A DNA stretch of 64,000 nucleotides. Source: Chloroflexota bacterium (lineage in GTDB: Bacteria; Chloroflexota; Dehalococcoidia; Lucifugimonadales; Lucifugimonadaceae). The notes beneath the pieces were generated by a model, which was not told where the DNA came from, did not search any database, and saw nothing but the letters and a program-made list of their open reading frames with translations. Shown piece by piece: positions 24,640-42,579 of the stretch. Both the position numbers and the translations under genes were made by a program. Within the stretch, counting starts at the first letter, position 1, and every line of letters starts with the position of its first letter. The stretch lies in NCBI GenBank assembly GCA_029262735.1, contig JAJCYY010000013.1:4108-68107 (forward strand). The letters run 5' to 3'.

Positions 24640-24741
24640 TTCTCACATCCTGATGGCTGCTGGCGTATTGCCGCTTTTTCCATATCTTTTCAACACATAC
24701 CTACACACTGGCCTACCGAAATCTCTTTCGAGGCTGTTTTA

Positions 24742-25108: not shown

Positions 25109-25298
25109 TATCCGAGTCAACGGGCAGCCTCAATTTCCTTCTCATATTCGTTTTCGGCTCCGCCCTCTCTTCATCTGACGTCAGTTCGGACACCAGCCGT
25201 TCTGCGATCTCGCTTTCTTCAACTCGCATATCTCAAATCCTGATCCCTAGTGCGTCGCCGTTTTTGAACTGATTCCGAACACATCTATGTAGACTGGC

Positions 25299-26156: not shown

Positions 26157-26212
26157 TGGTGGGGAAGGTGGGATTCGAACCCACACGTCTGTTAAGACAC
26201 ATGCTCCTAAGG
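26157..26212 (-). repeat. direct repeat: 3' 56 nt of tRNA-Leu(UAG) (att-like)
   Basis: The sequence TGGTGGGGAAGGTGGGATTCGAACCCACACGTCTGTTAAGACACATGCTCCTAAGG is near-identical to 42494-42549. Confidence 0.8.
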
Positions 26213-26335
26213 TATTTTCAACTGAGTGCTAGGCGTCCAGAACGACAATCCCAAGCGAAACAGCAATAATTATGTGGCCTAACTTCGGAGCGAAAATCGG
26301 CGGAGAGACAGCGCAGCCTGCTGGTGATACGCCCG

Positions 26336-27361
26336 CTACGCAGAGGCCGCTTGATAGAACTTCTTCGCGGCAAGGAACGCGCCGATGAACCCTTTGTTTC
26401 CTATGCCCCAACTGAAGGCACCTGACGCATCGACGGCGAGCAGTTGATTCGCCATACGCTCCGCCAGTGAATCGTACTCGGCAACAGATGCCCCGACATT
26501 TTCCCGAACCTCTGCTGGTGTCGTCGCGCCGATTTTCGCGGATCGTAGCACCTGGATCGATGCGTGGTTCGCAGCCTCCAGAATGCGATGGGGGAAGTCC
26601 GGGCTGTGTGGTAAAAGCGGGCTGATGGCGACCGAGACGAAGACGCCCTCGTCCTTCAGACGTCGCATGATTCGCAGTCGTCGGTCCGGAGTGATGCCGC
26701 CACGTTCGATCTTCCGTTGTTCAGGCAGAAGATCGGAGCTGATGCTGAAGCTGACACCGACACGCCCCTTCAGTCCTAGTGCAACAAGTCGCTCCAACAC
26801 CTGAGGGTCCTCAACCACTTTTGGTGAACGCGTCTGGCACATCAAGAACACGTTCGACTGGTCGAAGACCTCAAGGTTCTCACGAGTCGTCCGCAACGTT
26901 TCCGGCATTGACAAAAAAGGGTCTGTCTTGGGGCTCATGAACACAGATGCCCCCCCAAGCCCCTTTTTTGGACGTCCTGACGGATCGAGCAGCGCCTTTC
27001 GGAGTCTTGCCGTGATTTCCGGTTTGGGAAGAAGCCAGGATCCCCATTTCCTGAACCAGTAACCGTCTCTTCCACCCGGATAATGCCCTGTCATCAAGTC
27101 CGGCACGTAGCAGAAGCTGCAACTCTTGCCCCAGAGGCAACCAATCCACGGATCGAACGTGTAGATGTTCGCCGGCGCATCGGTCGCCTCGAACTCCGGG
27201 AACGCCCGCTCGCCCGAAAGTTGTCCCCAGAAACCTGACTTCTGGTGGTTGAGCACCACCTTCTGACCCGAAGGCAACAGATCATTTTCTGGGTGCGCCG
27301 GACCGCGGAGAATCGGCTCAAATGAACCGGATAACTGTAAGGGTAACTTGAGTTGCGGCAC
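26336..27361 (-). CDS. radical SAM protein, SplB/COG1533 (DNA repair photolyase-like) family
   Basis: The product has a GCLWGKSCSFCYV cysteine cluster (CX5CX2C variant) and a downstream SPKTDPF...PE motif resembling the TDPYQP.E motif of COG1533. It has a GTG start directly abutting the stop of the upstream ParB-like gene (TAAGTG). Confidence 0.6.
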   Translation of the reverse strand: MPQLKLPLQLSGSFEPILRGPAHPENDLLPSGQKVVLNHQKSGFWGQLSGERAFPEFEATDAPANIYTFDPWIGCLWGKSCSFCYVPDLMTGHYPGGRDGYWFRKWGSWLLPKPEITARLRKALLDPSGRPKKGLGGASVFMSPKTDPFLSMPETLRTTRENLEVFDQSNVFLMCQTRSPKVVEDPQVLERLVALGLKGRVGVSFSISSDLLPEQRKIERGGITPDRRLRIMRRLKDEGVFVSVAISPLLPHSPDFPHRILEAANHASIQVLRSAKIGATTPAEVRENVGASVAEYDSLAERMANQLLAVDASGAFSWGIGNKGFIGAFLAAKKFYQAASA

Positions 27362-28117
27362 TTAAGCATCCACACTGTCAGCCGATGATGGCGAGGGAGA
27401 TAACGAATCTCGATCTAGGTAATGCCTGGCAAGCGTCGCAAGAGCGCCGCCCCGGCGAGTCGTGTCGTTCGACCGATGCAAAGCGACATCGAGTGCGAGA
27501 TTCAGCACTCGGTACTCTTCGCTGTGCAGCATAAATCCCATCGAAACCGTTTCGTTCGGAGTTTCTGTCTCTTGTCGAACTTTCTCAGAAGTATCGAAGT
27601 TGGCGATCTCGAGCAGCCTCATGATCTGGCGTTCGCTGTCCGGCAACAGCTCGCAAAGCTCTTCGGTGGAACGCCCATCAAGCAGACCGCAGAGCAGCAC
27701 AGCTCGTCGTTCCGGAATGTCTTTCCCGGAGAGGCGGTTGATTGTAGCCAGGCAAAGCGCCGTTTCCCTATCGTTCAGATTCCAGACAATGCACTGAGCA
27801 GATTCTAGTTGGAGAGCCTGCAGGACCATTAACCGATTTCTTCCATCGATTACTTGGTACTGACCGCGTACTTTAGGGTAGGGACGCACGATGAGTGGTT
27901 CATGGTAACCGGTCAGCTCAATGATCCTCCTCAACTTTGTCAGTCTGTCGGCCGGCATATGATTCGGGCAGCCCACATGAGGAACTAAGCGTTCAAGATT
28001 GATTGAGCGTAGCCTCTCTCTTGAGCATCTTCTCAACCTCCACCAACTTGCCCGATCCCCAACACGCCAATTCTGACTAACGGCTTGCTCAAGAAGCTGG
28101 TACGAGCCTGCTTGCAT
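27362..28117 (-). CDS. ParB-like / DUF262-like nuclease-domain protein
   Basis: The product has the ParB N-terminal domain signature IVRPYPKVRGQYQVIDGRNRLMVLQAL. An alternative start at MPADRL (about 27958) is possible. Confidence 0.6.
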   Translation of the reverse strand: MQAGSYQLLEQAVSQNWRVGDRASWWRLRRCSRERLRSINLERLVPHVGCPNHMPADRLTKLRRIIELTGYHEPLIVRPYPKVRGQYQVIDGRNRLMVLQALQLESAQCIVWNLNDRETALCLATINRLSGKDIPERRAVLLCGLLDGRSTEELCELLPDSERQIMRLLEIANFDTSEKVRQETETPNETVSMGFMLHSEEYRVLNLALDVALHRSNDTTRRGGALATLARHYLDRDSLSPSPSSADSVDA

Positions 28118-29708
28118 TCCTGATATTCAAATCGAGGCTATTCTCTCCGGGTTTCCAGAGCAGATATGCATGGTTGTCCCGAAGCCGGAGTGTTCTTGAA
28201 ACGTCGACTGCCGTGATACCACCGTCGCAGTGTTCAAGAATGTGGGCTTTTAATGTCTGAGGAAACAGGTCGTAGTCTTCGATGAAAAGTAAATCACAGA
28301 CGTCAAGTAACCCGTCCAGGATGCTGGCCCCGTTCGCGGACAACAGGGACTCCTCATTGAATATCCGAGCGGGCGCATAAAAATCGTGCTCACGGCCATC
28401 ATTCGAGTCGCATCCAGTGAGGCGATGCATGCTTCGGTAGAAAGCAGAGAGTGATAGCAGTATGCAAGAACAGCTCGAATCGGCAGCGATTTGGCGGTTT
28501 TGAAATGAAACTGCTCGATCACCGTCACCGAAGCCATAGCAAACTTGACCTAAAAACTTTTCGTTGTGCACGTCAGACTTTTCGAAGGACCTGCGGGCCT
28601 TGGGCTCCATGCACAGATCGGCCCAGGAGAGGCCGGTAATATCGAATTTGCTTAGATTGTTGAGCAGCTTAGAGATGATTCCGATGCGGATACCGTTGGA
28701 AGCTGGCAGCCTGTCGAAAGAATCCAGCCAGCGCCTGTTGTCCTCGGCAAAGAACGTTACGCAGTCAAATTTCTCCTTGATCGATTCGCCGCGAAGGAAT
28801 CGCAGCGGATCCCTCACAACCAGATCCACAGACCAAACACGTACGCGGCAGGAGCCGGATTCAGCAGAGAGTCGAGTCCGGGAGCGTTTGAGCGTCGTGG
28901 AAACCAGGCTCCCGCTACCGGCTCCTATATCCACGATCTCGACGCCTCGATAGGTGTCCTTCTCGGCAGACCACTGTCGTATTACCGGATCAATCACTTT
29001 GTTCACTATGCGCTTGGCTCGCTGCTCAGATCGCGGATCGACACCGCTCGTTGCGAAGTTCGAAAATGCGTCAACTGTCAAGAAACTAGCCGTCCGTGCG
29101 CGATTGGATGCTGCCGGGAAGATCAGCAGCGACAGTTGAGAATTAGGAACCAGCGTTAATTGCCGGTAGTGGTAGAACAGCTCGGCATCTTCGCTGGCAG
29201 CTAGCATGATCAATGGAAGATATCCTGTGCTGTCGGGACTGTTCGGAGCATTCAGCTTTGCCATCAGATAAGCCGGGTTTCTGAGAGTAGTCGTCGCCCC
29301 CGCCTTTCCGTGGCTGTCTGCAGGCGAGGTCAGAATCGCAAAGCACTCGAACGCTAGGACAGTCCTCAATGCAGCTCGGTACTTCATTTCAACGCTCGTC
29401 GACACCACGGCATCCACACTGTTAAGTAATCTGAAGTAGTTGTAGCAGTAGTCAGCTACGTGGGATGAATCGAAGCCACACGCAATATATTCCAGCCAGA
29501 TTCCACGAAGGGACTCCAGACGCTTATCGACTTCATGAATGTGCAAATCCGTCACAGGGGGCCAATACTCTGCCCAGTCGGCCGTATCTATGTGAAATTG
29601 ACCTGATTGATGAACCGTTACGCTCTTGATGAGAGTAGGTTCCTGCAATGCTGATAGAAGTGACCCGCGAAACAAGGATCTTACGGTCTTGTCGGCCATG
29701 CTTGGCAA
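28089..29708 (-). CDS. large protein with class-I SAM-dependent methyltransferase-like core
   Basis: The product has motif I (VEIVDIGAGSGSL) followed by an acidic beta-2 end (VWSVDLV). It is 539 aa and the flanking domains are unassigned. Confidence 0.5.
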   Translation of the reverse strand: MPSMADKTVRSLFRGSLLSALQEPTLIKSVTVHQSGQFHIDTADWAEYWPPVTDLHIHEVDKRLESLRGIWLEYIACGFDSSHVADYCYNYFRLLNSVDAVVSTSVEMKYRAALRTVLAFECFAILTSPADSHGKAGATTTLRNPAYLMAKLNAPNSPDSTGYLPLIMLAASEDAELFYHYRQLTLVPNSQLSLLIFPAASNRARTASFLTVDAFSNFATSGVDPRSEQRAKRIVNKVIDPVIRQWSAEKDTYRGVEIVDIGAGSGSLVSTTLKRSRTRLSAESGSCRVRVWSVDLVVRDPLRFLRGESIKEKFDCVTFFAEDNRRWLDSFDRLPASNGIRIGIISKLLNNLSKFDITGLSWADLCMEPKARRSFEKSDVHNEKFLGQVCYGFGDGDRAVSFQNRQIAADSSCSCILLSLSAFYRSMHRLTGCDSNDGREHDFYAPARIFNEESLLSANGASILDGLLDVCDLLFIEDYDLFPQTLKAHILEHCDGGITAVDVSRTLRLRDNHAYLLWKPGENSLDLNIRNASRLVPAS

Positions 29709-30021
29709 ATGGAACCACCCGAGTGTCCGGTGAAGAAGAGAAATATACGAATCGGGAATCGAGCTCGAGCGCCGGGCTTTTCTTGCCGGTTACGCTCCTC
29801 TCCAACATAGAAACAGGTGACAGCAAGAACAACCGGCATGTCAGGTGAGCTGACTAAACAGCGCCGACAGAGTCTGACGGCAGCGATAAAGAAGATCGCT
29901 CCTAAACAGATGAAAAGAATCGGTGACGAGATCCATTCTCAATCGTCAAACATGCCTATGAAGTGACCAACAAGCGCTAGGCGACAATTTTCAACTCGCC
30001 ACCGAGCCCACTGAACAGCAA

Positions 30022-30075
30022 TGGTGGGGAAGGTGGGATTCGAACCCACACGGATTGCTCCACATGCTCCTAAGG
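30022..30075 (-). repeat. direct repeat: 3' part of tRNA-Leu(UAG) (att-like)
   Basis: The sequence TGGTGGGGAAGGTGGGATTCGAACCCACACG...CATGCTCCTAAGG shares its T-arm and acceptor with the other copies. The variable-arm region diverges. Confidence 0.75.
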
Positions 30076-30671
30076 GATGAAGAGGTTGTTCACAGACATA
30101 CCACAACGTCCTTCCAAGTGCGCGGCGAATGGCAACAGGTCCACAAACGACCACCTGCGTCCAAGAGTGTCGCTCGTTGCTACTGTCAGATTGACTGTCT
30201 GGTTTGCATCGAACCGTCCATGGAATCAGCACACGAGGGCCAAACACACGCGTCTTCGGGTTGACCTTGTATCTTCTTCGCTAACGTCGCCTGGATGGTG
30301 GCGTCGATGTGACCTTCTCCCCGAGATTCGCGCCGAATTAGGTGATAATTTTCAGGGAAGATTCTGAACCTAAGAATGGGAGATCATGTCGTGAAGAGAT
30401 CTCAGGTTACAAACGATCAGCCGTTCTTCTGGCGGATGTCCCGTACCGCTCCTGTCAGGATTGCTGTCATGTGGTTGCCGAAAACCATGAACGACAATTG
30501 TTACTCCAGTTGGCCCGGCTTGTGATGGAAGTTTTGGGACCATGAGCAGCGGCCGACGGCACATGCTTACCTGATATGAGGTGGACTTCGCGCTGGTTCC
30601 CTGAAGCAGCGATTTCGAATCCTTGTGTTTTCAGGTAATGAATACTGGGCCATGTATTTTTAGGAAACTCA

Positions 30672-30974
30672 TCACCCTCGCTGTATCGGACTCGCATTTA
30701 CTTTTTGCTCATCAATGATGATCTTTGCGGCTGATCCCCACAGGTAACCACCGAGTGCTCCAAACGGAATGCCAGCCACGAAGAGTCCCAGTCCGGCGCC
30801 AATACGAATGCCCATCTCGCCCCAGCCAACTCCGCCGCCCACATCGACGTCGTAATCGAGTGCGAACAGGAGGGCCATGCCGGCGAGGAAACCGGCGATG
30901 GCCACGATCCAGGCAATGACCGAAAGAATGCGGACGAACAGAAACGTCGGCCAGAGAACCAGGTAGCGGATCAT
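30672..30974 (-). CDS. small Gly-rich membrane protein
   Basis: The 100-aa product has three predicted TM segments. It lies immediately downstream of the SPFH gene. Confidence 0.45.
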   Translation of the reverse strand: MIRYLVLWPTFLFVRILSVIAWIVAIAGFLAGMALLFALDYDVDVGGGVGWGEMGIRIGAGLGLFVAGIPFGALGGYLWGSAAKIIIDEQKVNASPIQRG

Positions 30975-30980
30975 TACTCA

Positions 30981-33020
30981 CTAACCCTTTTCATCGATTT
31001 CCGCGTCACCGTCGGTTACAGCAACAACTTCATCACCGGGGATCTGATTTGGGACAGCTACACCTGGTTCTGCAGGGCTAGCTTCGGTGACTTCAGGATT
31101 CGAGCCTGGCTCCGCCTGAGGTCCATCTTCGTTCGCTATGTCAGTGATCTCGGATACACCTGATGCGTTCACTGACGGCCCAAGCGCTGTCGCCAACCAG
31201 GCGTTGAACAAACCGTTCCCGTCGCCGCCCCCGGTCACAGAAATTTCTGGGGTGATCTTCACGTTGCCCCTTGCGACCTCCTCCAGCACCTTCAAGACGG
31301 CCAACCGCTCCGAGCCGATCACGCCTGCCTGCGCCGAGAACGCCTCGGCAGTTGCAAGGCCAACCTGCTTCACCGCCTGCGCATCACCATCAGCACGGGT
31401 GCTGGTGGAATCACGGACACCTTCAGCCTCCCTCCGGGCCGCCTCCGCCCTGCTACCAGCAATCTCTACCGACAGCTTCGCCTCTACGACCTGTGTCTGC
31501 TGGTCGGCCCGCGCCCGTTGCTCCTGGACACCGATGCGCTCCGATTCGGCGAGCGCTTCCTGCTGATACTGAGCCTGCTGCTGGGTCGCGATTTCCTTCC
31601 TCGTCTGCGTGTCCAGCAAAGACTGGTCGACCGCGATGTATGCGATCAGTAGGTTCTGTGCTTCCACGAAGTAGTGAAGAAACTCTTCGCGAGCCCTTGC
31701 CAGCGCCTGCTGCTGCAACTCAGACCTGCCCTGTACAAAAGCGATAGCCTTCTCTTCACCTGCCCTATTCCGGAATGACGAGTCGATCAGTGGGTGAACG
31801 ATCTGCTCGATCAAGTTCTCAACCGAACCAAAACGAGCGATGACGAATGGTGCGTATTCCGGCCGGATCCGAATGATCATCCGGACATCCACGTCGAGGT
31901 GGAAACCGTCCATCGAAGTCACACGCAGCTGGTTGAACTTGAAGAACTCAGCGGCTCGGCCTTCGGTGCCCGGCTCGAATTCGATCGGCACCGGTGAAGG
32001 TAGGTCCATCCTCACGTGAGGACCTGAAGCCCAGTCGATCGTCACTGCACTGGTTGGAACCAGAAACGGGTTGTAGGCAATCGGGTTCAAGTTGTACGTT
32101 CCGGGTGCCACAGGATCACGGAGGATCCCGCGCCTTTCACGGTCGGTTATCAGAAGCCCTTCAATTCCCTCGTGAATCGGCTGGCGTAGGTCCTCAGTGC
32201 TTCCAGGAATACGCGGCGTTTCGATGTTGTCATCGAGCTCCTTTCCTACGTTCGATCTGAGTACTGCAACGTACCCGGGCGGCACATCGGCAACCGGGTG
32301 CGTCTGGATCTCGAACAGCAGCGGATTGATGTAGTAGCTACCGGGCTGAAGCGTGTCCAACTGCGGACCCCGATAACCCCCACCCTCTATGAACGACTGT
32401 CCATCCTGAAAGAACCGGTACTGACGAACGCGCGTGCCCTCGTCCGAAGCAGCATCCACAGGTTTAGGCGCCACGATGTATCCGGGTGCAAGCGCCATAC
32501 CGTCTAGCGCTATGGCGACTCCCACCTGCCCCGCTTCGATCTTCGTCGCACGCGCAGTTCGAATCCTGAACAGCTGCGTGTTTATCCGGTAGACGCCCGG
32601 GCGAATGATCTCGACCTGCGGGCCTTTTTTGCCTCCGCTCTGAAGGAAGGCGCGACCATCCTGGAACGAGTCACAGTCGACTGCGTCACCCAGCAATCTC
32701 CCGGCGGGAAGCGCTTCGCCGTCGATCGATTCGACGATACCAACCTCGTCAGGGTTGATCACCGTCACCGGAACGCTTTCAAACTTCCATGTCAGCGGAG
32801 ATCGCCAGTACAGCCCCGGCTTCAATACTGAAGCGAGAATGCCCACTTCCTGGTTCCGGGCGATTATGTGTCCCTGGGGCAGCTCTTTGCCGCCCATCTT
32901 CCGGGTCAGTATTCCGACCTGGTCGTCCCGAACCAACCTGACACCCGTCGCGACAAACGAAGCGAGCGAAAAGAACGCGATGCCGGACACAATTGCCAGG
33001 CCAACTATTTCGATAGCCAT
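30981..33020 (-). CDS. SPFH/band-7 (flotillin-like) membrane protein
   Basis: The product has an N-terminal TM segment, SPFH-like repeats and a long coiled-coil region rich in EA-Q repeats, as in FloT/YuaG flotillins. It ends in an acidic tail. Confidence 0.65.
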   Translation of the reverse strand: MAIEIVGLAIVSGIAFFSLASFVATGVRLVRDDQVGILTRKMGGKELPQGHIIARNQEVGILASVLKPGLYWRSPLTWKFESVPVTVINPDEVGIVESIDGEALPAGRLLGDAVDCDSFQDGRAFLQSGGKKGPQVEIIRPGVYRINTQLFRIRTARATKIEAGQVGVAIALDGMALAPGYIVAPKPVDAASDEGTRVRQYRFFQDGQSFIEGGGYRGPQLDTLQPGSYYINPLLFEIQTHPVADVPPGYVAVLRSNVGKELDDNIETPRIPGSTEDLRQPIHEGIEGLLITDRERRGILRDPVAPGTYNLNPIAYNPFLVPTSAVTIDWASGPHVRMDLPSPVPIEFEPGTEGRAAEFFKFNQLRVTSMDGFHLDVDVRMIIRIRPEYAPFVIARFGSVENLIEQIVHPLIDSSFRNRAGEEKAIAFVQGRSELQQQALARAREEFLHYFVEAQNLLIAYIAVDQSLLDTQTRKEIATQQQAQYQQEALAESERIGVQEQRARADQQTQVVEAKLSVEIAGSRAEAARREAEGVRDSTSTRADGDAQAVKQVGLATAEAFSAQAGVIGSERLAVLKVLEEVARGNVKITPEISVTGGGDGNGLFNAWLATALGPSVNASGVSEITDIANEDGPQAEPGSNPEVTEASPAEPGVAVPNQIPGDEVVAVTDGDAEIDEKG

Positions 33021-33089
33021 CTTTCTTAAACCTCTTCACCACAATCAAAGTTGCAGCGGAGCGTCCGCTGTGTTGTCGAGCGATCCATC

Positions 33090-33437
33090 TCAGGTGCTAC
33101 TTCCGAGCTGCCACATCCGGGTACCGACAGCGAAAACCAGAACCGTCGGCACGAACAACGTGATGCCGAATGCCAACTGGAATGCGTAACTGGACCGAAG
33201 CTCTCGGAATCCGATAGCGCGGGAAATTGCCTCTGCGGCATGGAGCAACACCCACGACGTGATCCACATGACCGATGCAAGTGCCAGGACTGGCACTGCC
33301 ATGCAACGCGCTGTCGCCCTGGCAGGCCGCGAAATCAGCGATCTAACCGAAGAGGCCAACGTCGTTCCGGTTGATATGCGTGAAACGACCTCGACCAGTG
33401 TTGAACTTGATGCCTCAATTGCTGCACGGGACTGCAT
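33090..33437 (-). CDS. small membrane protein upstream of SPFH gene (NfeD-like position)
   Basis: The 115-aa product has two TM helices. It lies in the same operon as the SPFH gene. Confidence 0.4.
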   Translation of the reverse strand: MQSRAAIEASSSTLVEVVSRISTGTTLASSVRSLISRPARATARCMAVPVLALASVMWITSWVLLHAAEAISRAIGFRELRSSYAFQLAFGITLFVPTVLVFAVGTRMWQLGSST

Positions 33438-33684
33438 TGGTTTCTCCTTTAGCGGGCTGGTACTCGGTCATCGAGCACGACCTCCTGCGGACACAACCCT
33501 GTGCCCCCTGTGCCCCCTTTGCCCTTTGAGAAACACACTAGCCACGGCCTAGTCCCATCTGTAGCTCGCCAGTCCCAGGAGCGTCCCAGAGTTCAATCCC
33601 GCAATCCCACGGAGTCGCGTCCGAGTCCTACAACAGGTGCCGGAGAATCCGCCCGTAAACTCATAGGCCTATAATCCCCGCCAG

Positions 33685-36600
33685 ATGACAGACCTGAATC
33701 AATCTGGATTCGTGACCAACGCTGCCGGTGCGCAGGAAAACGTTGAGCACGATGAAATCGAGTCCCAGCCTGCGAGAACAGATCCTCTGGCAAACCAGTT
33801 GCGGAGCGCGCTGGATGCTCTTCATGACATCAAGGAACTAGAACGGCATCCCCTCGCGTTCCGCCTGGCCGGTAAGTCCGAGAGCACGCCGGAGCTCCGT
33901 GCCCGTCGACTGCAAAGGTGGCTCGTAGACGCCATCAATAAGCTACGACCTGAGAATCCGGGCAGGGCACCCGATTCCCAGGAGAGCCGGTGGCATACGC
34001 TGCTGAACGCGCGGTACATCGAGGGTCTTGAGCCGGAGGTTGTGTGGAGGCGGATCGGGCACGGCCGATCAAGCTTCTTTCGACACGTAAGTAGTGGAAT
34101 TGATGAATTGGCCCGGCAGTTTCGAAACGAGACGTCCGGTGGACCCGACGCCATTCCTCCCCTGATCTCCGGCGGCTACGAATCAGAATTCGTTGGCCGA
34201 GAGCAGGAGTTCTCGGTTCTCAAGGCCCTCTACAACGAGGTCGCTTCAGGAGCCGGCGGCCGGGTCGCAATGATCACCGGTGAGGAAGGGATTGGGAAGA
34301 CCCGACTCGCTCGGGAGCTTGGCAAGTTTGTTGAGAAAGAGGGAGGCTTATTCCTCGAGGGCCGATGGGCCGCGTGGGAGGGCGCTGCTCCGTACGGCGC
34401 TCTTGCCGACAGCCTGAGACAGGGCATTCGTCAGCTTGATCCTGAGGAAGTCGATTTTGCTGTAGGTCCTTACAGGCGTGAACTGACCCGTATCCTGCCA
34501 GAACTGGCTGAAAAGCCAGAGAGCCGAACCGATGAGACGGCACAAGGTGTCGAGGGTGAACAGCTGCGCTTCTACGACGGCGTGTTCTGGCTCGTCCAGA
34601 ACCTGTCGCAGAAACAGCCGCTCGTCCTGCTTCTCGACGACCTCCACCTCGCCCCACAGATGAGTCTGCAGCTACATATCGCGCGACGCCTGCCGGAGCT
34701 GCGACTGCTCATTGTTTACGGATTCAGGGAGAACGAGTTAGCCGAGAAGACTGCCCTTTTTACCGGACGCAACGAGATGGTGCGGAACAGGCTAGTAACC
34801 GACATAGCGTTAATGCCAATCACTGAATCCCAGGTAGAGCAAATCATCGCAAACGCCTTCGAACCAGACATCGCAGCTCATCTGCGAAACCGGATTTTCG
34901 AAATTAATCGAGGCAACCCATTCTTTGTCGAAGAGGTCCTCCGATATCTGCTGCAGAACCAAATGATCCGCAGGTCCGACAGAGGATGGGAAGTCCAAGA
35001 CATCACGCATCTTGGCATTCCCGAAACAGTCAAGCGGCTTGTCCAGGATAGGGTCGACAGGCTGGGCGAAGAAGCAACAAGCGTCCTGCGGCAAGCGTCT
35101 GTGCTGGGAAGAGATTTCAGATTCGATGCTCTGACTGTGATGACCCAATTGCCCGAAGACGAGCTTGTCGAAGTAATTGAAAGGGCCGTCGCTGGCGGGG
35201 TGCTGGTCGACAGTACGCGCGCAGCTGCAGCCGAGGAGTACAGGTTCCGTGATGACCATGTCCGGGAAGCTCTGTACGACGGCATCACTTCACCCAGGCG
35301 GAGGCGATACCATCGGGCGGCTGGCGGCGCACTAGAAGAGACCGACCCGAGCAGACTCCAGGAGCTTGCATTTCACTTCACCACGGGCAGTGATCTGGAA
35401 CGTGGTGCGAAGTACTCATTCGAAGCGGCTGAACAAGCCAACGCAGCGTTCTCGTGGAACAGGGCCATACCACTATACCGTGATGCTCTCGACCTCTGGG
35501 ACGAGCTTGGCGATCACCGGGATGAACGAGCTTTGGCAGCGGAACGCCTCGGAAACGCCTGCTACAAATCAGGCATTCAAGCGCAGCGAGCTACAGGCTA
35601 CTTCCAGCAGTCCCTCGATCTCTACACGGAGCTTGGAAACGAATCCAAAGCGGCGACCATTCTCTCGGAACTCGGCCGCGAGCACATGCACAGCGGCAAC
35701 CTGGCTGCCCAGGACTTGAACTTGGCACTAAAGCACTTCACCGATGCAGAGGCGATCATCTCCCGAGAACCGGAGAGCATCAGGCACGGCATGGTGTACT
35801 GCGGACTTGCGATGGTGCACCTGGACAGGATGGAATTTCGTGACGCGCTCGAATGGGCGCACAGGGCGTTCGAAGTTGGCAAACGCATCAACGCTCCGGC
35901 TGTTATTGCGAACGCCAGCGTCCCTCTCGGCGCTGCGACGGCGATGGAGAGCGTGTCAGACGCTGCGGACATCCTGGAGCGTGGTTGGCGCACTGCCATC
36001 GAATCGGACCTCGGCTTTCAATCTGATCTATCCCGCGCTTATGCAGCGCGCGTCCTAGGAGCGATGCCGAAAGATCCGCGCACCGGCATCGAGTGGGTAA
36101 ACCGAGGTCCGCGATATGAGACTACCTATTCACTGTTCGATATTCCCGCTCACCTGGTTGCGTTCCATGCGCTGGCAGGTGAGTTCGATGAGGCAGAGAA
36201 ACACTTGGACGAGCTTCAGCGTAGGCTGGCAGCGCTCGGTCAGCCCACATTCGGGCCATGGCCGGATGAACTTGGCCTACTGTGGATCCGCACCGGACAG
36301 CTGGAACATGCCGAGGTTCAGCTTGGCAAAGCGCTGGATTGGGCGACAAATAGCGGGAACAGGCTGGTTGAAGCCGGGACGGCAAGGCGTCTTGGCGAGG
36401 TACTGACACACCTGGGTCATTACGAGGTGGCCGAAGAGAAATTCCTGCATTCGCTCAAGCTGAACCGGGCCGGCGGGAATCGGATAGGTGAGTTGGCACT
36501 TTTACCACAACTCGCGCAGCTGTACTGCGAAACCGGACGATTCAACGATGCGGAGAACACTTTGGTGCGTGCCCGCAAAGTTGAATCCGAAATCGATGCG

Positions 36601-36894
36601 CCCGGAGCGCTAAAAGGTGATCTCTTTCTCGCCAATGGAATTGTGAACGCAGGCTTCCGGCGAATAGAAGAGTCCGACAATGCATTCAGGAGCGCCCTGG
36701 ATATTTACCGAGAGTTCGATCGCCCATGGGACGAGGCTCGTGCCTACTATGCACTGGGACTGGTGACAAGAGCGATTTCAGTCAACGAGTCTGATGTCAG
36801 CCGCTCTCGGGAACTAGTAGGGAAAGCGGATTCGCTGTTCTCGTCCATCGGTGCGACATGGTGGGCGGAACGTTGTCGTCAAGGTCATGCATGA
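33685..36894 (+). CDS. STAND-type NTPase with N-terminal sigma-70-region-4-like HTH and C-terminal TPR repeats
   Basis: The 1069-aa product has an HTH-like segment (RWHTLLNARYIEGLEPEVVWRRIGHGRSSFFRHVSSGIDEL). It has Walker A (GEEGIGKTRLAREL) and Walker B (LVLLLDDLH). The C-terminal half contains multiple TPR-like helices. Confidence 0.7.
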   Translation: MTDLNQSGFVTNAAGAQENVEHDEIESQPARTDPLANQLRSALDALHDIKELERHPLAFRLAGKSESTPELRARRLQRWLVDAINKLRPENPGRAPDSQESRWHTLLNARYIEGLEPEVVWRRIGHGRSSFFRHVSSGIDELARQFRNETSGGPDAIPPLISGGYESEFVGREQEFSVLKALYNEVASGAGGRVAMITGEEGIGKTRLARELGKFVEKEGGLFLEGRWAAWEGAAPYGALADSLRQGIRQLDPEEVDFAVGPYRRELTRILPELAEKPESRTDETAQGVEGEQLRFYDGVFWLVQNLSQKQPLVLLLDDLHLAPQMSLQLHIARRLPELRLLIVYGFRENELAEKTALFTGRNEMVRNRLVTDIALMPITESQVEQIIANAFEPDIAAHLRNRIFEINRGNPFFVEEVLRYLLQNQMIRRSDRGWEVQDITHLGIPETVKRLVQDRVDRLGEEATSVLRQASVLGRDFRFDALTVMTQLPEDELVEVIERAVAGGVLVDSTRAAAAEEYRFRDDHVREALYDGITSPRRRRYHRAAGGALEETDPSRLQELAFHFTTGSDLERGAKYSFEAAEQANAAFSWNRAIPLYRDALDLWDELGDHRDERALAAERLGNACYKSGIQAQRATGYFQQSLDLYTELGNESKAATILSELGREHMHSGNLAAQDLNLALKHFTDAEAIISREPESIRHGMVYCGLAMVHLDRMEFRDALEWAHRAFEVGKRINAPAVIANASVPLGAATAMESVSDAADILERGWRTAIESDLGFQSDLSRAYAARVLGAMPKDPRTGIEWVNRGPRYETTYSLFDIPAHLVAFHALAGEFDEAEKHLDELQRRLAALGQPTFGPWPDELGLLWIRTGQLEHAEVQLGKALDWATNSGNRLVEAGTARRLGEVLTHLGHYEVAEEKFLHSLKLNRAGGNRIGELALLPQLAQLYCETGRFNDAENTLVRARKVESEIDAPGALKGDLFLANGIVNAGFRRIEESDNAFRSALDIYREFDRPWDEARAYYALGLVTRAISVNESDVSRSRELVGKADSLFSSIGATWWAERCRQGHA

Positions 36895-36947
36895 AGCTCG
36901 AAATTTCATCTCCAATTCTGACGATCACTGGAGCTAGCGATCGTGAA

Positions 36948-36967
36948 ACTGTCAAACATACTGTCAA
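36948..36967 (+). repeat. direct-repeat motif ACTGTCAA-N4-ACTGTCAA
   Basis: The sequence ACTGTCAAACATACTGTCAA lies between the STAND gene and the MFS gene. The same dyad occurs at 42183-42202 and 42425-42444. Confidence 0.7.
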
Positions 36968-37234
36968 AATAGCGTGATGGAGGGGCAACTCATACCAGCT
37001 AATGAGTTTCGCAATTGAGAAATGACGTTTCATATGTGTGCTGGAAATTAGCGTCACATGCCCCGGCACTATGAAGAGCCCACTCAGACGCGGATCTCTC
37101 ATCTTCTTATAATCTCTCTCGTCGAGAGATTGGACTGAATCAAACCAAGATATCGTGCCATCAATCGGACACGATCGATGAAAAGAAGCCTGGTCATCGG
37201 GACCGTCGCCTGGTGTTCATCAAGGAGCCGGTGA

Positions 37235-38554
37235 GTGGTCAAGACCGTTGCCGGAAGTTCTGATCAGGACACCACATCGACTGCAACCGCGCCATCTGTC
37301 ACTCACCCGTCTGGCCGCGCGGGCTTGTTCCACTCGTTCAGCTATCGCAGCTTCAGGATGCAGTGGATCGCCGATTCCCTGATGAGTTGGTCGAATGAGA
37401 TGGAGAACCTGATCCTGGGCTGGTTCGTCCTGGTGCAGACCGACTCCCCGTTCTTACTCGGCCTGTTCGGTGCACTGAAATTTCTCGGCACGCTAGTAGC
37501 ACCAATCTATGGCGTCATTGCAGACCGAATGGACCGACGCCACATGCTCATCGGCCTGCGTTCGATATTCGCCGTCCTTGCGTTGACTGTCACGACGCTG
37601 GCGCTGACCGGCACACTCGAAGTGTGGCACGTGTTCGTCATCGCCACCCTGACCGGCATGATTCGCGTGGCAGATAACGTAGCCCGGCAGGCGCTCATCG
37701 CCGACATTGTTCCCCGCGAATCCCTGCTGAACGCGTATGGCCTCACTCGCACCACACAGGACTCAGCGAAGATAGCGGGTTCGTTGATTGGCGCTGGACT
37801 ATTCGCCCAATTCGGTCTTGGCCTCGCCTATACAGGCGTAACCGTTCTATATGCCAGTTCCGTGGTGTTCATCGCTGCGGTGAGCATCGTGCGTCGGGCT
37901 GTTCCTTCGCAGCGTGATCCAGTCTTCCGTACGCTCAAGTCGGGAGTCTCATATATGCGCGATTCTCCGACCATCATGGCGGTGATGTTCCTGGCATTCC
38001 TGGTGAACCTCACTGCCTTCCCGCTCTCGAACGGCCTGATGCCAGTTGTAGCACGCGACCTGTTCAACACGGACGAGAACGGGCTGGCGAGGCTGCTGGC
38101 GGCAGTTGCCTCCGGGGCGCTGACGGGGTCTATCGCGATGGCTGCGTTGTCACGCATCGCGCGGCCTGACCGCGTGATGCTGTTTGGGGTAGTGGCGTGG
38201 CATCTGTTCCTGTTGTTGTTCGCCCAGTTTGACACCGCGGGGCCGGCGTTCCCCGTGCTGGCAACGGTGGGATTCGCCAGTTCAGTTTCAATGATCTCGA
38301 TGACCGTACTCCTCATGACCACAGTACAACGAGAGTTTCGCGGTCGCGTAATGGGCGTTCGGATGCTGGCGGTCTATGGGCTACCGATGGGACTGCTGAT
38401 AGGCGGTGCGCTTGCTGAAGTGTTCGGAATCCAGGCGACGATCACGATCTACGGCATTGTCGGCCTGGTGCTCACGGCGCTGTCAGTGGTCGTCTGGCCG
38501 CAGTTATTGCGAAGCGGAGCAGTGATAGGGAGCGATGCTCCGCCCCGCGAGTAA
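37235..38554 (+). CDS. MFS transporter
   Basis: The product has 12 predicted TM segments and an MFS signature (GVIADRMDRRHMLIGL). Confidence 0.8.
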   Translation: MVKTVAGSSDQDTTSTATAPSVTHPSGRAGLFHSFSYRSFRMQWIADSLMSWSNEMENLILGWFVLVQTDSPFLLGLFGALKFLGTLVAPIYGVIADRMDRRHMLIGLRSIFAVLALTVTTLALTGTLEVWHVFVIATLTGMIRVADNVARQALIADIVPRESLLNAYGLTRTTQDSAKIAGSLIGAGLFAQFGLGLAYTGVTVLYASSVVFIAAVSIVRRAVPSQRDPVFRTLKSGVSYMRDSPTIMAVMFLAFLVNLTAFPLSNGLMPVVARDLFNTDENGLARLLAAVASGALTGSIAMAALSRIARPDRVMLFGVVAWHLFLLLFAQFDTAGPAFPVLATVGFASSVSMISMTVLLMTTVQREFRGRVMGVRMLAVYGLPMGLLIGGALAEVFGIQATITIYGIVGLVLTALSVVVWPQLLRSGAVIGSDAPPRE

Positions 38555-38631
38555 GGCCGTCATTGCCCGAACAGTTCCCGACCCACGATGGATTCTGCAA
38601 TCGCGGCATCGGTACCACCTTGCCCGCCCAT

Positions 38632-38661
38632 TCGCCTTCGCCTTCGCCTTCGCCTTCGCCT
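38632..38661. repeat. hexanucleotide SSR (CGCCTT)x5
   Basis: The perfect tandem repeat lies in the convergent intergenic region between the MFS and KAP genes. Confidence 0.9.
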
Positions 38662-38875
38662 GTCAAAGTTACTGTGAAACGCGATCGAGGCCACTATTAT
38701 CCGTAGCATTGCATCTCGAACCGGTGTCTCATGGAGCTCCGAGCACATGCCTCTCGGCCATGACGGCCCTTTGATTCAGCGCATCTTCTGCCCACTACCA
38801 TTACGCTCCGTGGTGACCAGCCGACGGTCGGCACACGACCGATAGTCTGCGAGAGATCGCGAACTTTCGTGTGAC

Positions 38876-41659
38876 CTAGCTTTCGTCCGTTGATACTTCC
38901 GGTTCTTCCAACGGTACCTTCGGATTCGTACCGCTCGTCGGCGACGCCGGGGCGTTGAGAATGGAACTCTCGAACTGTTGTTTCGCCACCTCAGCCGACT
39001 TTTCTCCAAATATGACCACCTTCTGAAGATTCGCCGCCAACACAGGATTGACCAGATCCCGGGAGTGAGAGGCCATATAAGCAGCCACGCGGAGTCTCAG
39101 CAGCAACCTCCTCAACTCTTCTTTTCCATCCCGCAAGATGATTCCATCCACCCGCTTGGGGACAGAAGTGTTGGTCGATTGGAATGTCAACAAGTCACCG
39201 CTTTCGGAAGTCTCCTCGTCCGCGTAAGTTCTGGGGTTGGCCACAATTTGCTCAGAATCTGCGATAGTAACTTTTTCTCTGGAAAGGCCTTTCAATTTTG
39301 AATCCCAAAGTTCGGCTGGTGGATTGGCGAATCCGTCAATAAAGTACTTGGGATCCCAGTTGCTCTCGTTTCCCAGGTAGCTGAAAATCCTGTTCTTATC
39401 GTCGATATCCACATCTGGTGACCCGAGCACCTGCTGCAAGAAGGCATGCGACTCTTGCCTCAATACCAGTGGGATTACCATTGGCAGGCATCCATCATCC
39501 AGAGGTTGTTTGTCATCAGTAGATTTCAGTGCGATGTCGGCGATTCGCAGTATCTCCCGAGGAACACCGCCGGCAAGCACACAAATGCCGTGTCCGACGG
39601 CTTTTGGCAGCACGTTCCGCTTCGGCAGATTTGACCTCAGCCGATCGGAACCGGGATCTGTTCGATCACTCTGTGCTGGACTATACGATTTGCTAGATGC
39701 CGAACCTCTACTTCCTGTTGACGTTGGCTCAGGTTTGATCAACTTCGAAACTACGTCATTGACGCCCCGCCTCAGTGCATCTAACAACTGTGGAAAAGTC
39801 GCTGGCGGTTGTCGTTTAGATTCGGGCACCGGTTTGTGTAGTGATACAGCGATTCGCTCATCCAACAACTTCCACGCCTCTGCAGGTCGTAGGGGACCGA
39901 ACGCAAAGACCTGGTTGAACGAGCTACTAAATTCGTCGCGTCCCCGGAAGGATCCCATTCGGTACGCGCTGGCTGCCTCATCCGAGATGGACATCAGGAA
40001 GTGAACATTTTTGGCCGCAAAGATTCCCTTGATGTCCCTCAATAGCTTTCGAACGTCCTCTTCATCGTCGATTTTATCGAGCTCATCGATGCCGATCACG
40101 ACATTGCCAAGCATCGCTTCCTGCGCCCGTTCGGCAAGATCCGCGAACTCTTTCACGAGCGAAGTTACCGTATACGGTCTTTCCACGAGCTCCTTGCTGC
40201 GGGAAAACTTCACTAGCCCCGTTAACCATTTGCCGCCCTCGGCCCCGAACTCTGAACTGCGTCGTTCGCTGCTGGAGTAGCGAACCCACTCTTTTGCACG
40301 CTCAGCGCGCCTTTTCACGACACGGAGTTGCTGGTTTCTCTGTTTCTGGTTTGTGAAATTCTTGGCAGGAATTATCAACGAAAGAAACGGGATGAATGCC
40401 AGCGCGCCTCCAGAGACTGCCGCCAATATCGAAAAGGAGTTGTAGAGAGTCATTGGCGGAGCCTGATCGCCCTCGCGGACCAGAAAGGACCAATCATGGG
40501 ACGCGGTGTACCGAATCGCGACTACCAATCCGACCCAAACTACCACTGAAAATGATGTCACCCACAACGAATCTACATTGTCGAAATTAGTCCTGATTGA
40601 GGCGCCCCGCCCTTCATATCTTGAACTCCGGGCTAAACGTCTGAGATATGACCACGTCCTTGATGGCGTATTCCTGAGGAGGGAAGGAAAACCGTACTTT
40701 AGCAACCAGTTTTCTGATCTTGATGTGTCGGATTCTGATTGTTTAGCTTGCGGCGTGCCGGAGTCTGGTAGTTCAGCTTGTGCCCTGTCGGACCCTGACT
40801 GTTCAGAAGGCGAATTGTCGGACTTCTCGCTCGCCTCTGTACCCGTGGTGACCCATTTCCATGCGAGCTGCGAAGCTACTAAGCCTGACAAAAGTGTCGC
40901 AGCCACCAGGATCAGGAATTTTAGTATCTTGCTGATGTCTGCTTGCTGGTTCGAGAACTCCCAGCTCAGTGCCGCACCCATTGCGATCAACAACAGGATG
41001 GTGACTCCGAGCAACGCATCAAAACCTACCTGTGAATACCTGATGACTGCGAACCGGTTTGGCTGCCCGTCAAATTCGGATGCGTCCAGATCCGTGGCCC
41101 CTAGTGCTACGCGCTGCCTGTTTGACCGGCGTCCCATGTACTTAATTGCTTTGCCGGTCTTTGCAACCACCGCGTCAGCCAGCGTGTATATGAGGGTTTC
41201 CAGGAATGGCAGAGCCTTGTATTCGCTGGGAACCGGAGCCCAGATTCCGACTCCGTAGTCCTCTTTGCCGGATTCAGAATGATTTCGTTGCTGGTCATCA
41301 TCGCGGGATTTCTCGTTGCTGTTTGGCCCGTCCTTTCTATTATCGTTGTTCGAATCCGACAAGTTCACTGGTTGCTGGGCATTCGCCAGATCAACGGCCT
41401 GCTGTATGAACCAGGTCTTTCCGGCTCCTCTTGGTCCAGAAACTCCGAACGAGCCTCCTTCGATTTCCAGCAACGCATCCGGGCTCTGTGATCTGTCCCA
41501 TTTCTCGAAGCGATCAGAACGAAACGAGGTGAAGACATCCGCGTTTTTGATCTTCTTCCACGTCCGGTTGTTTTCCTGCCCGCCGTCTTCCGTGGTTTTT
41601 TCGTTATCAGGGGATGTGTTTTCCACCTCGGGACCCGTTGCACCATTAGGAATTGACAT
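38876..41659 (-). CDS. KAP-family P-loop NTPase
   Basis: The 927-aa product has Walker A (GPRGAGKT) and Walker B (VVIGIDELDKI). Four predicted TM helices are inserted between them, which is the KAP hallmark. The local sequence is AT-richer. Confidence 0.7.
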   Translation of the reverse strand: MSIPNGATGPEVENTSPDNEKTTEDGGQENNRTWKKIKNADVFTSFRSDRFEKWDRSQSPDALLEIEGGSFGVSGPRGAGKTWFIQQAVDLANAQQPVNLSDSNNDNRKDGPNSNEKSRDDDQQRNHSESGKEDYGVGIWAPVPSEYKALPFLETLIYTLADAVVAKTGKAIKYMGRRSNRQRVALGATDLDASEFDGQPNRFAVIRYSQVGFDALLGVTILLLIAMGAALSWEFSNQQADISKILKFLILVAATLLSGLVASQLAWKWVTTGTEASEKSDNSPSEQSGSDRAQAELPDSGTPQAKQSESDTSRSENWLLKYGFPSLLRNTPSRTWSYLRRLARSSRYEGRGASIRTNFDNVDSLWVTSFSVVVWVGLVVAIRYTASHDWSFLVREGDQAPPMTLYNSFSILAAVSGGALAFIPFLSLIIPAKNFTNQKQRNQQLRVVKRRAERAKEWVRYSSSERRSSEFGAEGGKWLTGLVKFSRSKELVERPYTVTSLVKEFADLAERAQEAMLGNVVIGIDELDKIDDEEDVRKLLRDIKGIFAAKNVHFLMSISDEAASAYRMGSFRGRDEFSSSFNQVFAFGPLRPAEAWKLLDERIAVSLHKPVPESKRQPPATFPQLLDALRRGVNDVVSKLIKPEPTSTGSRGSASSKSYSPAQSDRTDPGSDRLRSNLPKRNVLPKAVGHGICVLAGGVPREILRIADIALKSTDDKQPLDDGCLPMVIPLVLRQESHAFLQQVLGSPDVDIDDKNRIFSYLGNESNWDPKYFIDGFANPPAELWDSKLKGLSREKVTIADSEQIVANPRTYADEETSESGDLLTFQSTNTSVPKRVDGIILRDGKEELRRLLLRLRVAAYMASHSRDLVNPVLAANLQKVVIFGEKSAEVAKQQFESSILNAPASPTSGTNPKVPLEEPEVSTDES

Positions 41660-42182
41660 CGGCTGTGCCTTCTTTTTACATACGGCCCTCTAGCGCGAGG
41701 ACAACGCTGAGTTCACTGTGCGATCATATTCCAGGTTGGATCCTACGGATTGGAGAGAGTGACCGCCCGCTAGACGAATCAGAATCATTCCCATCGAATC
41801 CGCTGAGCGGATGGAACGGCATGATCGTAGTGAAACCGTCGATCCTAGTGGATTGTGTACAAACTTATCGTTGTTCACAACACATTGGCTATCCTAAAAG
41901 ACTCTCATCAGGAAGTCGAAACAACGATTCAGATCATGACTCTCCCATTGACCCACCGAGGTCGAGACCCTGGAACAAGGCCACAAGATTCTGGGAGGTC
42001 AGAGTCTGCTGCCGTTCTACGATTATCCCGTTCGTTGCAGGATCCCAACTTCCGAGTCGAACTCCGACCCTCGAGACACAATTGCCGATCAACTTTGTCT
42101 GTGTCGGTCAATGAATTCAACGTGCTCCTGGGAAGCGCCGAGAGCGGAACCCCTATGAATCGTGCCAATACCGATAACGTTG

Positions 42183-42202
42183 ACTGTCAACACTACTGTC
42201 AA
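42183..42202 (+). repeat. direct-repeat motif ACTGTCAA-N4-ACTGTCAA
   Basis: The sequence ACTGTCAACACTACTGTCAA lies about 290 bp from the tRNA-Leu 3' end. The left copy is embedded in the palindrome TTGACTGTCAA. Confidence 0.7.
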
Positions 42203-42424
42203 AAAACCTCATTTCCCGTGGACGGGCGATTGTTGCATCTCGATATCAGCTTCTGAAGGCTGCTTAGCACATGCTTCCCGATCTTGACAGCGATTGAAGT
42301 GGGGTTCTGGTCTGAACTTTCATCTCCGACAGGCCTAACAGTCCTTGAAATTGACCTGATCGGTGGAACTGAGGTAATACGAACTCCGAATCGAGATGCG
42401 CCCGTATTCATAGCCACAGGTGAA

Positions 42425-42444
42425 ACTGTCAAAACTACTGTCAA
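42425..42444 (+). repeat. direct-repeat motif ACTGTCAA-N4-ACTGTCAA
   Basis: The sequence ACTGTCAAAACTACTGTCAA lies about 50 bp from the tRNA-Leu 3' end. Confidence 0.7.
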
Positions 42445-42493
42445 TCCGTGTTTCGGACGACCTCATGAATTCCTCGAAACAGCTAAGTTGAAC

Positions 42494-42579
42494 TGGTGGG
42501 GAAGGGGGGATTCGAACCCCCACGTCTGTTAAGACACATGCTCCTAAGGCATGCGCGTCTGCCATTTCGCCACTTCCCC
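42494..42579 (-). tRNA. tRNA-Leu (anticodon UAG), type II with long variable arm
   Basis: The minus-strand sequence is GGGGAAGTGGCGAAATGGCAGACGCGCATGCCTTAGGAGCATGTGTCTTAACAGACGTGGGGGTTCGAATCCCCC(C)CTTCCCCACCA. It has an anticodon stem CATGC/GCATG with loop CUUAGGA, a variable arm GTCT-TAAC-AGAC and an encoded CCA. There is one extra C in the T-stem relative to the repeat copies. Confidence 0.85.

Follow-up and report, generated by a model that had tools for sequence, protein, structure and literature searches.

A direct-repeat dyad recurs beside a tRNA-Leu gene

The DNA analysed here, hereafter the window, is a stretch of 64,000 nucleotides (positions 4,108 to 68,107 of the forward strand of contig JAJCYY010000013.1) from a Chloroflexota bacterium of the family Lucifugimonadaceae (assembly GCA_029262735.1). 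It carries an intact tRNA-Leu(TAG) gene on the minus strand (42494-42579) and, beside it, several copies of a short direct-repeat dyad, which are the subject of this work. The exact dyad, ACTGTCAA-N4-ACTGTCAA, occurs three times in the window, always on the plus strand, at 36948-36967 (site 1, ACTGTCAAacatACTGTCAA), 42183-42202 (site 2, ACTGTCAAcactACTGTCAA) and 42425-42444 (site 3, ACTGTCAAaactACTGTCAA), and did not occur once over 100 dinucleotide-preserving shuffles. A preliminary description made from the sequence alone had reported these three copies, placing two of them within about 300 bp of the tRNA-Leu 3' end and one in a palindrome, and these observations hold. Given the position of the tRNA gene, its 3' end is separated by 49 nt from the end of site 3 and by 291 nt from that of site 2, and the palindrome TTGACTGTCAA is present at 42180-42190.

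The 8-mer ACTGTCAA was found eight times against 1.57 expected, with six of the eight instances belonging to dyads. The two single copies, at 29074 and 54521, and a dyad with three mismatches located within a gene at 45427 are probably chance occurrences. A relaxed search with CTGTCA-N6-CTGTCA, allowing at most one mismatch, identified six sites in the window (0.28 expected), all on the plus strand and confined to the interval 30183-42443. The set includes three weaker copies that had escaped the preliminary description. Two of them were recovered by allowing mismatches, at 38659-38678 (CCTGTCAAagttACTGTGAA (CCTGTCAAAGTTACTGTGAA), matching at 14/16 positions) and at 30182-30201 (ACTGTCAGattgACTGTCTG (ACTGTCAGATTGACTGTCTG), 13/16), and the third by the shorter CTGTCA pattern, at 30451-30470 (CCTGTCAGgattGCTGTCAT (CCTGTCAGGATTGCTGTCAT), an exact CTGTCA-N6-CTGTCA instance); all three read on the plus strand. 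Site 1 lies within the 340-nt gap separating the co-directional STAND and MFS genes, while the dyad at 38659 is located where the MFS and KAP NTPase genes converge. The space between these two genes also contains a perfect hexamer tandem repeat, TTCGCC x5.2 (38631-38661), which abuts the dyad.

The dyads are associated with tRNA-derived cores

The heptamer CACATGC, a segment of the tRNA-Leu(TAG) anticodon stem, is located 65-90 nt downstream of five of the six dyads. Beyond site 3 it forms part of the tRNA gene itself, where the anticodon-stem segment CACATGCTCCTAAGG (42535-42549) represents the common core and begins 90 nt past the dyad. The other four instances, all on the plus strand, define internal junctions: 42268-42274 (CACATGCTTCCCGATCTTGAC), 65 nt beyond site 2; 38744-38750 (CACATGCCTCTCGGCCATGAC), 65 nt beyond the dyad at 38659; 37055-37061 (CACATGCCCCGGCACTATGAA), 87 nt beyond site 1; and 30560-30566 (CACATGCTTACCTGATATGAG), 89 nt beyond the dyad at 30451. 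The sixth dyad, at 30182, presents the reverse arrangement and lies 121 nt to the right of a core at 30061. CACATGC was the sole 7-mer common to all four downstream stretches tested, and random quadruples of stretches shared any 7-mer in 1 of 20000 cases. The chance of CACATGC occurring downstream of all three dyads that do not adjoin a tRNA fragment was estimated at approximately 2.5e-7. The right flank of the cores presents a further short common element, (C/T/G)ATGA(A/G). In addition, the two units with a 65-nt gap between dyad and core have an exact 11-mer in common, TTGCATCTCGA, located between the two elements at 42233-42243 and 38709-38719 on the plus strand; it could be the site of an accessory protein or merely reflect shared ancestry.

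Longer copies of the tRNA lie further inward. The 3' part of tRNA-Leu is repeated at 30019-30080 and 26154-26215, the latter a 62-nt copy with 95% identity to the tRNA, and in more degenerate form at 22264-22298. The 3' halves with their cores correspond to 30022-30075 (minus strand), a displaced copy that marks an att (attachment) junction, and to 26157-26212 (minus strand). In the second case the adjoining sequence is homologous to the flank of site 3 and the dyad has decayed, features that point to an older att junction. The segment CACATGCTCCTAAGG is found in the tRNA and in these two fragments, and a third, degenerate copy is present in the most degenerate fragment (CACATGCTCCGAAGA, 22264-22299, minus strand), the outermost junction of the series; to its left lie DUF1800 and DUF1501 genes, which are assumed to be core genes. 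The intact tRNA hence occupies one end, with direct repeats of its 3' part following inward in a single orientation.

The presence of dyads with cores at fixed distances, together with the recurring tRNA-Leu 3' halves, therefore outlines a tandem array of some seven inserted units between 22.3 and 42.5 kb, with boundaries at the cores 22285, 26198, 30061, 30560, 37055, 38744, 42268 and 42535. From the outermost unit towards the tRNA, these units contain a 527-aa (amino acid) protein without assigned function (22285-26198); a radical-SAM protein, a ParB_N-domain protein and a 539-aa protein (26198-30061); no gene and two dyads (30061-30560, 0.5 kb); Band7 and STAND genes (30560-37055); an MFS gene (37055-38744); a KAP NTPase gene (38744-42268); and again no gene (42268-42535). 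Except for 30182, each dyad lies just inside the tRNA-proximal end of its unit, so that site 1 belongs to the Band7/STAND unit, the 38659 dyad to the MFS unit, site 2 to the KAP NTPase unit and site 3 to the gene-free unit beside the tRNA. This last unit spans 267 bp (core, 157 nt, dyad, 90 nt, core) and includes the tRNA 3' half; it could be the leftover of a deletion between the two direct-repeat arms of one element.

Close to the tRNA the dyads are perfect, and at the oldest junctions they have been lost, a gradient that fits accretion with the newest unit nearest the tRNA, except that site 1 is perfect while the dyad at 38659, closer to the tRNA, is not. The tRNA-Leu 3' halves (42494-42534, 30022-30060, 26157-26197 and, in a syntenic relative described below, 9697-9737 of L210) also differ by compensatory changes in the T-stem: GGGGG/CCCCC in the live tRNA, GTGGG/CCCAC in both fragments and GAGAG/CTCTC in the relative. 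From these sequences it seems that each integration swapped in the working tRNA 3' half of the element, and the T-stem differences of the relative are those expected if every element brings its own.

A syntenic relative carries the dyad together with an integrase

Two related contigs, L210 and L213, were identified through the SGL gene that neighbours the array. Their SGL gene is 84% identical to that of the window (81% by tblastn), their FtsZ is 82% identical (tblastn) and the gene order is the same. The flanking SGL and FtsZ genes are common to both loci, and the island contents between them share nothing with those of the window. In L210, the tRNA-Leu(TAG) gene is accompanied by an exact dyad, ACTGTCAAtctgACTGTCAA, at 49 nt from the tRNA 3' end. 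Alignment with the window revealed that both half-sites and the 49-nt gap are kept, while the 4-nt spacer and the upstream flank have diverged. An element of 8.6 kb extends behind this dyad. Its cargo is SMC-like and methyltransferase genes, and it further contains an HTH_17 excisionase-like gene and, as an open reading frame (ORF), a 385-aa tyrosine integrase. The left boundary of the element consists of a degenerate dyad, 66 nt and CACATGCCCCGGTCTTATGAA, which is a junction of the internal type and nearly identical to the window core at 37055.

In more distant relatives (L131, L133 and L135) the tRNA-Leu-SGL arrangement is maintained without dyads, indicating that the dyads come with the islands. 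Two further observations were made at related loci. A STAND protein (AAA_16 and TPR domains, 989 aa) is encoded at 16133-19102 of L213 and presents no similarity to the window STAND by tblastn; this class of protein thus recurs as island cargo, though not as the same gene. A contig from the same species (L212, Logan SRR15505512) with a 100% identical SGL breaks off (positions 1-60) within the 3' half of the tRNA, at the very point of divergence between the repeated copies, which points to assembly collapse at the repeats or to heterogeneity of the population at this locus.

The same dyad is found at independent att loci

Including L210, the same dyad was identified in the same orientation and geometry at tRNA-derived att cores in 11 loci, ten of which have an integrase gene beside the dyad; none was detected in the remaining locus, L047. 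In those ten, the integrase is the sole gene that consistently adjoins the dyad. Part of this set was recovered by scanning viral contigs with the exact dyad. In L059, a dyad is followed by 47 nt, a tRNA-Asn-like sequence and a second dyad 2 nt ahead of the start of a tyrosine integrase gene, and in L091 the dyad lies directly ahead of the start of a homologous integrase. The dyad of L047 is 48 nt from a tRNA-Met. L104, L196, L204 and L207 share a common layout, in which the integrase stop codon is followed by a dyad, 45-90 nt, a tRNA 3' fragment, approximately 150 nt and a second dyad or a triad. GC content in these four contigs varies between 0.38 and 0.68, and their integrases show 28-37% identity with the L196 protein.

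Four further contigs (L214, L215, L216 and L217) were retrieved as homologues of the L210 integrase, without use of the motif. In L215, a hairpin and then a tRNA-like 3' end separate a dyad from a triad overlapping the integrase stop codon; in L217 the dyad overlaps the integrase stop and precedes the tRNA 3' part. L216, from Dictyobacter kobayashii (BIFS01000001.1, around 2.555 Mb), displays the integrase, the dyad GCTGTCACtactGCTGTCAA, a hairpin and 70 nt leading to a tRNA-Arg(CCT). L214, which terminates at a tRNA-Leu junction, contains no exact dyad. Overall, these four contigs (55.7 kb) contain five exact dyads against 0.007 expected. The consensus over all examples is T(A/G)CTGTCA(A/G), and CTGTCA reads on the strand antisense to the tRNA in every one of them.

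Besides real att sites, the scan for the exact dyad in viral contigs yielded many chance or coding-repeat matches, and many of its single matches were discarded as tandem coding repeats or as one conserved phage gene. Several viral contigs (L007, L005, L040 and L201-L209) contain long tandem arrays with a 12-nt period and CTGTCA, such as repeated GCGAACTGTCAA, which appear to be another kind of repeat, unrelated to att sites. A scan for dyad plus core in 185,579 genomes, a set to which the source genome does not belong, produced seven matches, with about eight estimated by chance, and none of the seven adjoined a tRNA. A candidate in L124 (497-587, from a Planctomycetota metagenome-assembled genome; CCTGTCAAaagaACTGTCAA, 71 nt, CACATGC) was judged to be probably due to chance; the 4-kb contig contains no tRNA or integrase, and the dyad is located upstream of a divergent gene whose N-terminal translation was read as BlaI-like. 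The scan of viral contigs for the dyad beside this particular tRNA-Leu 3' half returned no matches, and a search for relatives of the L196 integrase by word patterns produced nothing useful.

The associated integrases have a conserved N-terminal domain

Heterobivalent tyrosine integrases, such as those of lambda and L5, comprise an arm-binding, a core-binding and a catalytic domain. Members of the integrase family considered here are approximately 375-390 aa long, and the N-terminal extension of the 385-aa L210 ORF can therefore be taken as real. In an alignment of 39 sequences, the N-terminal consensus KRG..EGSIY.RKDGRW...G.RK..YG.T, within the first 45 residues or so, belongs to the most conserved regions of the protein. 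Pfam searches detected the core-binding domain from residue 77 and, at the N-terminus, merely a faint AP2 match. P0128, which is 46% identical to the L210 integrase, has an AlphaFold model with a pLDDT (predicted local distance difference test) score of 90.6, in which three strands and a helix form at residues 13-57, ahead of the core-binding domain. The model aligns with full-length lambda integrase over 361-372 columns, and its best structural matches are Tn1549 Int structures. As predicted by this model, P0128 has a lambda-Int-like N-terminal arm-binding domain. Sequence matches in a phage collection were dominated by mycobacteriophage integrases.

Interpretation of the dyads as putative arm-type sites

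Judging from these sequence comparisons, the dyads are most likely paired arm-type sites of att junctions, derived from tRNA-Leu-targeting elements of this integrase family. In the window, the dyads present the short repeats, the set distance to the core and the sequence distinct from the core that characterize arm-type sites; the accompanying feature, an element-encoded integrase with an N-terminal arm-binding domain, is found in L210 and in nine other loci. The position of the dyad at 30182, when compared with the geometry of L059, L104, L196 and L215, is that of the second, integrase-side arm of a phage attP. The preliminary description had offered integrase arm-type sites and iteron or operator arrays as two possibilities: the tRNA-derived cores at set distances, L210 and the ten further loci favour the former, and the sites track att junctions rather than promoters. 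Likewise, of the two roles proposed for the copy between the STAND and MFS genes, the core at 37055 supports a second att junction, whereas a shared regulator finds no promoter at the dyads. The preliminary description had, moreover, missed that the island is an array of several units and that it lacks an integrase gene.

In the proposed mechanism, the consensus T(A/G)CTGTCA(A/G), repeated head-to-tail every 12 bp, would constitute the arm sites of integrases that target tRNA genes. The att layout would run from the dyad through some 45-70 nt and the copied tRNA 3' half to the anticodon-stem core, with a second dyad or triad about 110-160 nt past the core in several elements. The N-terminal domain of the integrase is the likely binder of the arm repeats, holding them while the other two domains would exchange strands at the core. 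Strand exchange would take place within CACATGC, as no other identity recurs at every junction. The array from 22.3 to 42.5 kb would then have been built by integration at tRNA-Leu(TAG) time and again, each dyad being the putative tRNA-proximal arm of one unit and the dyad at 30182 the integrase-side arm.

Several observations weigh against this interpretation. No integrase gene or remnant was detected in the 64-kb window by Pfam searches on all large ORFs, tblastn with nine integrases against the window returned nothing, and an integrase-family profile run against its six-frame translation gave a best E-value of 1. The dyads of the window are therefore orphan sites, belonging either to decayed elements or to integrase-less units served in trans. 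A far-side dyad was found at only two of the seven junctions; five of the seven units have no second-arm dyad, with none past the cores at 22285, 26198, 30560, 37055 and 38744. L210 likewise has no significant second-arm dyad, the best match (10/16) being at background level. At the internal junctions, identity to the tRNA extends over just 7-10 bp and the tRNA 3' half is missing, and a unit of this type inserted straight into the tRNA would have broken it. The arm motif is moreover common to integrases that are only 28-46% identical and to a different, Bacteroidota-type integrase, a breadth unusual for arm specificity, which leaves room for another conserved protein as the binder. Finally, a literature search for the motif returned no relevant matches.

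The integrase-less units may be remnants of complete elements or may rely on an integrase encoded elsewhere. Decayed elements appear the more likely explanation. In L210 the recombination genes are at the tRNA-distal end and the cargo adjoins the dyad, and one deletion would therefore leave core, cargo, dyad and core. It is also possible, although on balance doubtful, that the units form a functional class of small cassettes, each with one to a few genes and no integrase, stacked by an arm-binding integrase acting in trans. Their one-armed att end would consist of the dyad, 65-90 nt and a minimal CACATGC core without any tRNA part, and the inner junctions of a platform anchored on the tRNA would be the place where the integrase captures and stacks them and perhaps also shuffles them. 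Favouring such cassettes are the three perfect or near-perfect internal sites, the clean junctions, the complete lack of detected integrase remnants and the occurrence of the same kind of junction at the left boundary of the live L210 element. A lack of integrase from the outset would account for clean junctions, for internal dyads that are perfect and for a tRNA that has remained unbroken.

Alternative explanations

The arm-type interpretation assigns the dyads to the integrase, but a protein acting beside it has to be considered. An excisionase, or recombination directionality factor, of the winged-helix or HTH_17 type would recognize head-to-tail repeats in one of the arms, bending the DNA so that excision can proceed, and sites of such factors are typically head-to-tail repeats about one helical turn apart. 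HTH_17 genes do lie beside the integrase in L210, L214 and L217, and in L059 a winged-helix gene abuts the dyad. Directionality-factor sites are, however, normally confined to one arm, whereas dyads are present on both sides of the core in L059, L104, L196, L204, L207 and L215. The integrase is also the only consistent neighbour of the dyad (10 of 11 loci), and the strong conservation of its N-terminal domain is in step with that of the motif, so that we regard binding by a directionality factor as improbable. A regulatory role is less plausible again. If the dyads were operators of a direct-repeat regulator, either of the PhoB/OmpR type or the upstream STAND protein, they would serve to co-regulate neighbouring genes. 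The location of site 1 between the STAND and MFS genes suits this idea, as does the CTGTCA half-site, which is the same as that of the Escherichia coli Pho box (CTGTCAT-N4-CTGTCAT). The likeness is one of resemblance only: Pho-box repeats have an 11-bp period and replace the -35 element of regulated promoters, while the dyads have a 12-bp period and lie off promoters. A promoter scan revealed no sigma-70-like promoter at any dyad, and a promoter reading based on TTGACA on the minus strand was rejected as no consistent -10 element accompanies it. The dyad at 38659 lies between convergent genes and site 3 in a gene-free unit, and in unrelated phage contigs devoid of STAND or phosphate genes the motif accompanies tRNA cores and integrases. 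The preliminary proposal that a helix-turn-helix domain of the STAND protein binds the repeats fares no better, since no DNA-binding domain was found in the STAND N-terminus. With regard to whether the copies follow tRNA-Leu islands or promoters, a check suggested in the same description, they follow att junctions, and we consider an operator function very unlikely.

Direct repeats near a tRNA gene, several of them in one island, might also be replication-origin iterons or binding sites at transposon ends, Tn7-like elements being known to insert beside tRNA genes. Yet no Rep, TnsB or other transposase gene is present in the window, the dyads all run in the same direction and hence form no inverted ends, and each site has just two repeats at a fixed distance from a tRNA-derived core. 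Gene content and orientation largely refute this explanation, leaving it a very small probability. Functionless recurrence through chance or composition is the least credible of all. The lone ACTGTCAA copies at 29074 and 54521 and the three-mismatch dyad inside the gene at 45427 are what it could call upon, and it is refuted by the shuffles, by the common strand, region and distance to CACATGC, and by the conservation in L210. Two structural readings were examined as well. An attC-like site folded from single-stranded DNA was rejected, as the dyad-to-core stretches fold no better than shuffles (z-scores -1.1 to +0.6), and Rfam searches on the window for known RNAs identified nothing but the tRNA.

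Cargo of the array units

The radical-SAM, ParB_N-domain and 539-aa proteins are encoded by a three-gene operon on the minus strand (26336-29708); the last has no Pfam match, and the ParB_N-domain protein gave a weak PADLOC match to MTase_II. PADLOC identified no known defence system among the cargo genes. The KAP-family P-loop NTPase (927 aa, 38876-41659, minus strand) has no close homologue among 5.8 billion proteins besides its own NCBI copy, and its next-best matches are 45-50% identical across some 20% of the length. Exact look-ups of the window proteins returned no record, apart from that one NCBI copy of the KAP NTPase, which is located on a 154-kb contig. A 9-nt tandem repeat, CCCTGTGCC x3, is located at 33497-33524, around 160 nt upstream of the STAND start.

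Comparison with known integration systems

The closest parallels are found in lambda-like and L5-like attP sites. Pairs or triplets of arm-type sites of approximately 11 bp flank the attP cores of L5-like integrases, and Pixie has two such sites, in direct orientation, on one side of the core and three on the opposite side (PMC3203893). The short paired or triplet repeats around a core that overlaps a tRNA, as in CrimD and Pixie (PMC3203893), and the adjoining integrase with an extra N-terminal DNA-binding domain are shared with the relative loci, and the pair-and-triplet arrangement of Pixie resembles those of L196 and L215. In contrast, no description of T(A/G)CTGTCA(A/G) at a 12-bp period was located in the literature searched, and the window sites are without an integrase. 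Whereas related mycobacteriophage integrases do not share arm sequences, those considered here share theirs at 28-46% identity, in hosts of low to high GC content.

The organization of the array recalls the tycheposon islands of Prochlorococcus, where tandem elements and remnants accumulate at tRNA genes (bioRxiv 10.1101/2020.12.28.424599). In both, successive integrations at one tRNA push older elements inwards, partial tRNA copies separate the units and degenerate remnants make up a variable island. The window host belongs to a different lineage; tycheposon islands keep fragmented integrases, while no remnant was detected in the window, and four of the window junctions present a 7-10 bp core with an arm dyad instead of a tRNA fragment. 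Minimal junctions of this kind have a counterpart in phages whose short common cores do not rebuild the tRNA, such as Fionnbharth, with its tRNA-dependent lysogeny (PMC10865867). These phages likewise share around 10 bp with the tRNA, have flanking arm-type sites and do not restore the tRNA 3' half, as is seen at the junctions 30560, 37055, 38744 and 42268. Fionnbharth-type phages, however, carry their own compensating tRNA gene, whereas the window tRNA is intact by virtue of the 3' half from the adjoining unit. The row of one-gene units in the same direction (MFS, KAP NTPase), each ending in a recombination site and free of a recombinase, is also reminiscent of integron arrays. The window differs in having no intI or attI and no single-strand folding, in its bipartite sites of arm repeat and core, and in using a tRNA gene as the platform. 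Should the cassette hypothesis prove true, such units would be a duplex-DNA, lambda-type counterpart of the integron.

Significance of the arm motif

Arm-type sites are already a well-known kind of feature, to which the dyads add one more example, and the novelty is therefore modest. For this genome, the pairs of dyad and core show where the segments of a 20-kb variable region at tRNA-Leu adjoin, and the Band7/STAND, MFS, KAP NTPase and radical-SAM/ParB-like sets can hence be recognized as separately acquired units. The resemblance to the Pho box means that the dyad could be misread in regulon scans. Beyond this locus, T(A/G)CTGTCA(A/G) at a 12-bp period beside a tRNA 3' end seems to be a signature by which a widespread family of integrases can be recognized from one genome to the next; it is carried by Chloroflexota-like genomes, by Dictyobacter kobayashii, by phage contigs of high and low GC content and by a Bacteroidota-type integrase. 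Dictyobacter kobayashii is a cultured Chloroflexota species with the full arrangement, which makes it practical for binding tests. The motif could help to locate att sites and the ends of elements in the genomes of uncultured organisms, and an arm motif kept across very distant integrases would make the att sites of this family predictable from sequence alone.

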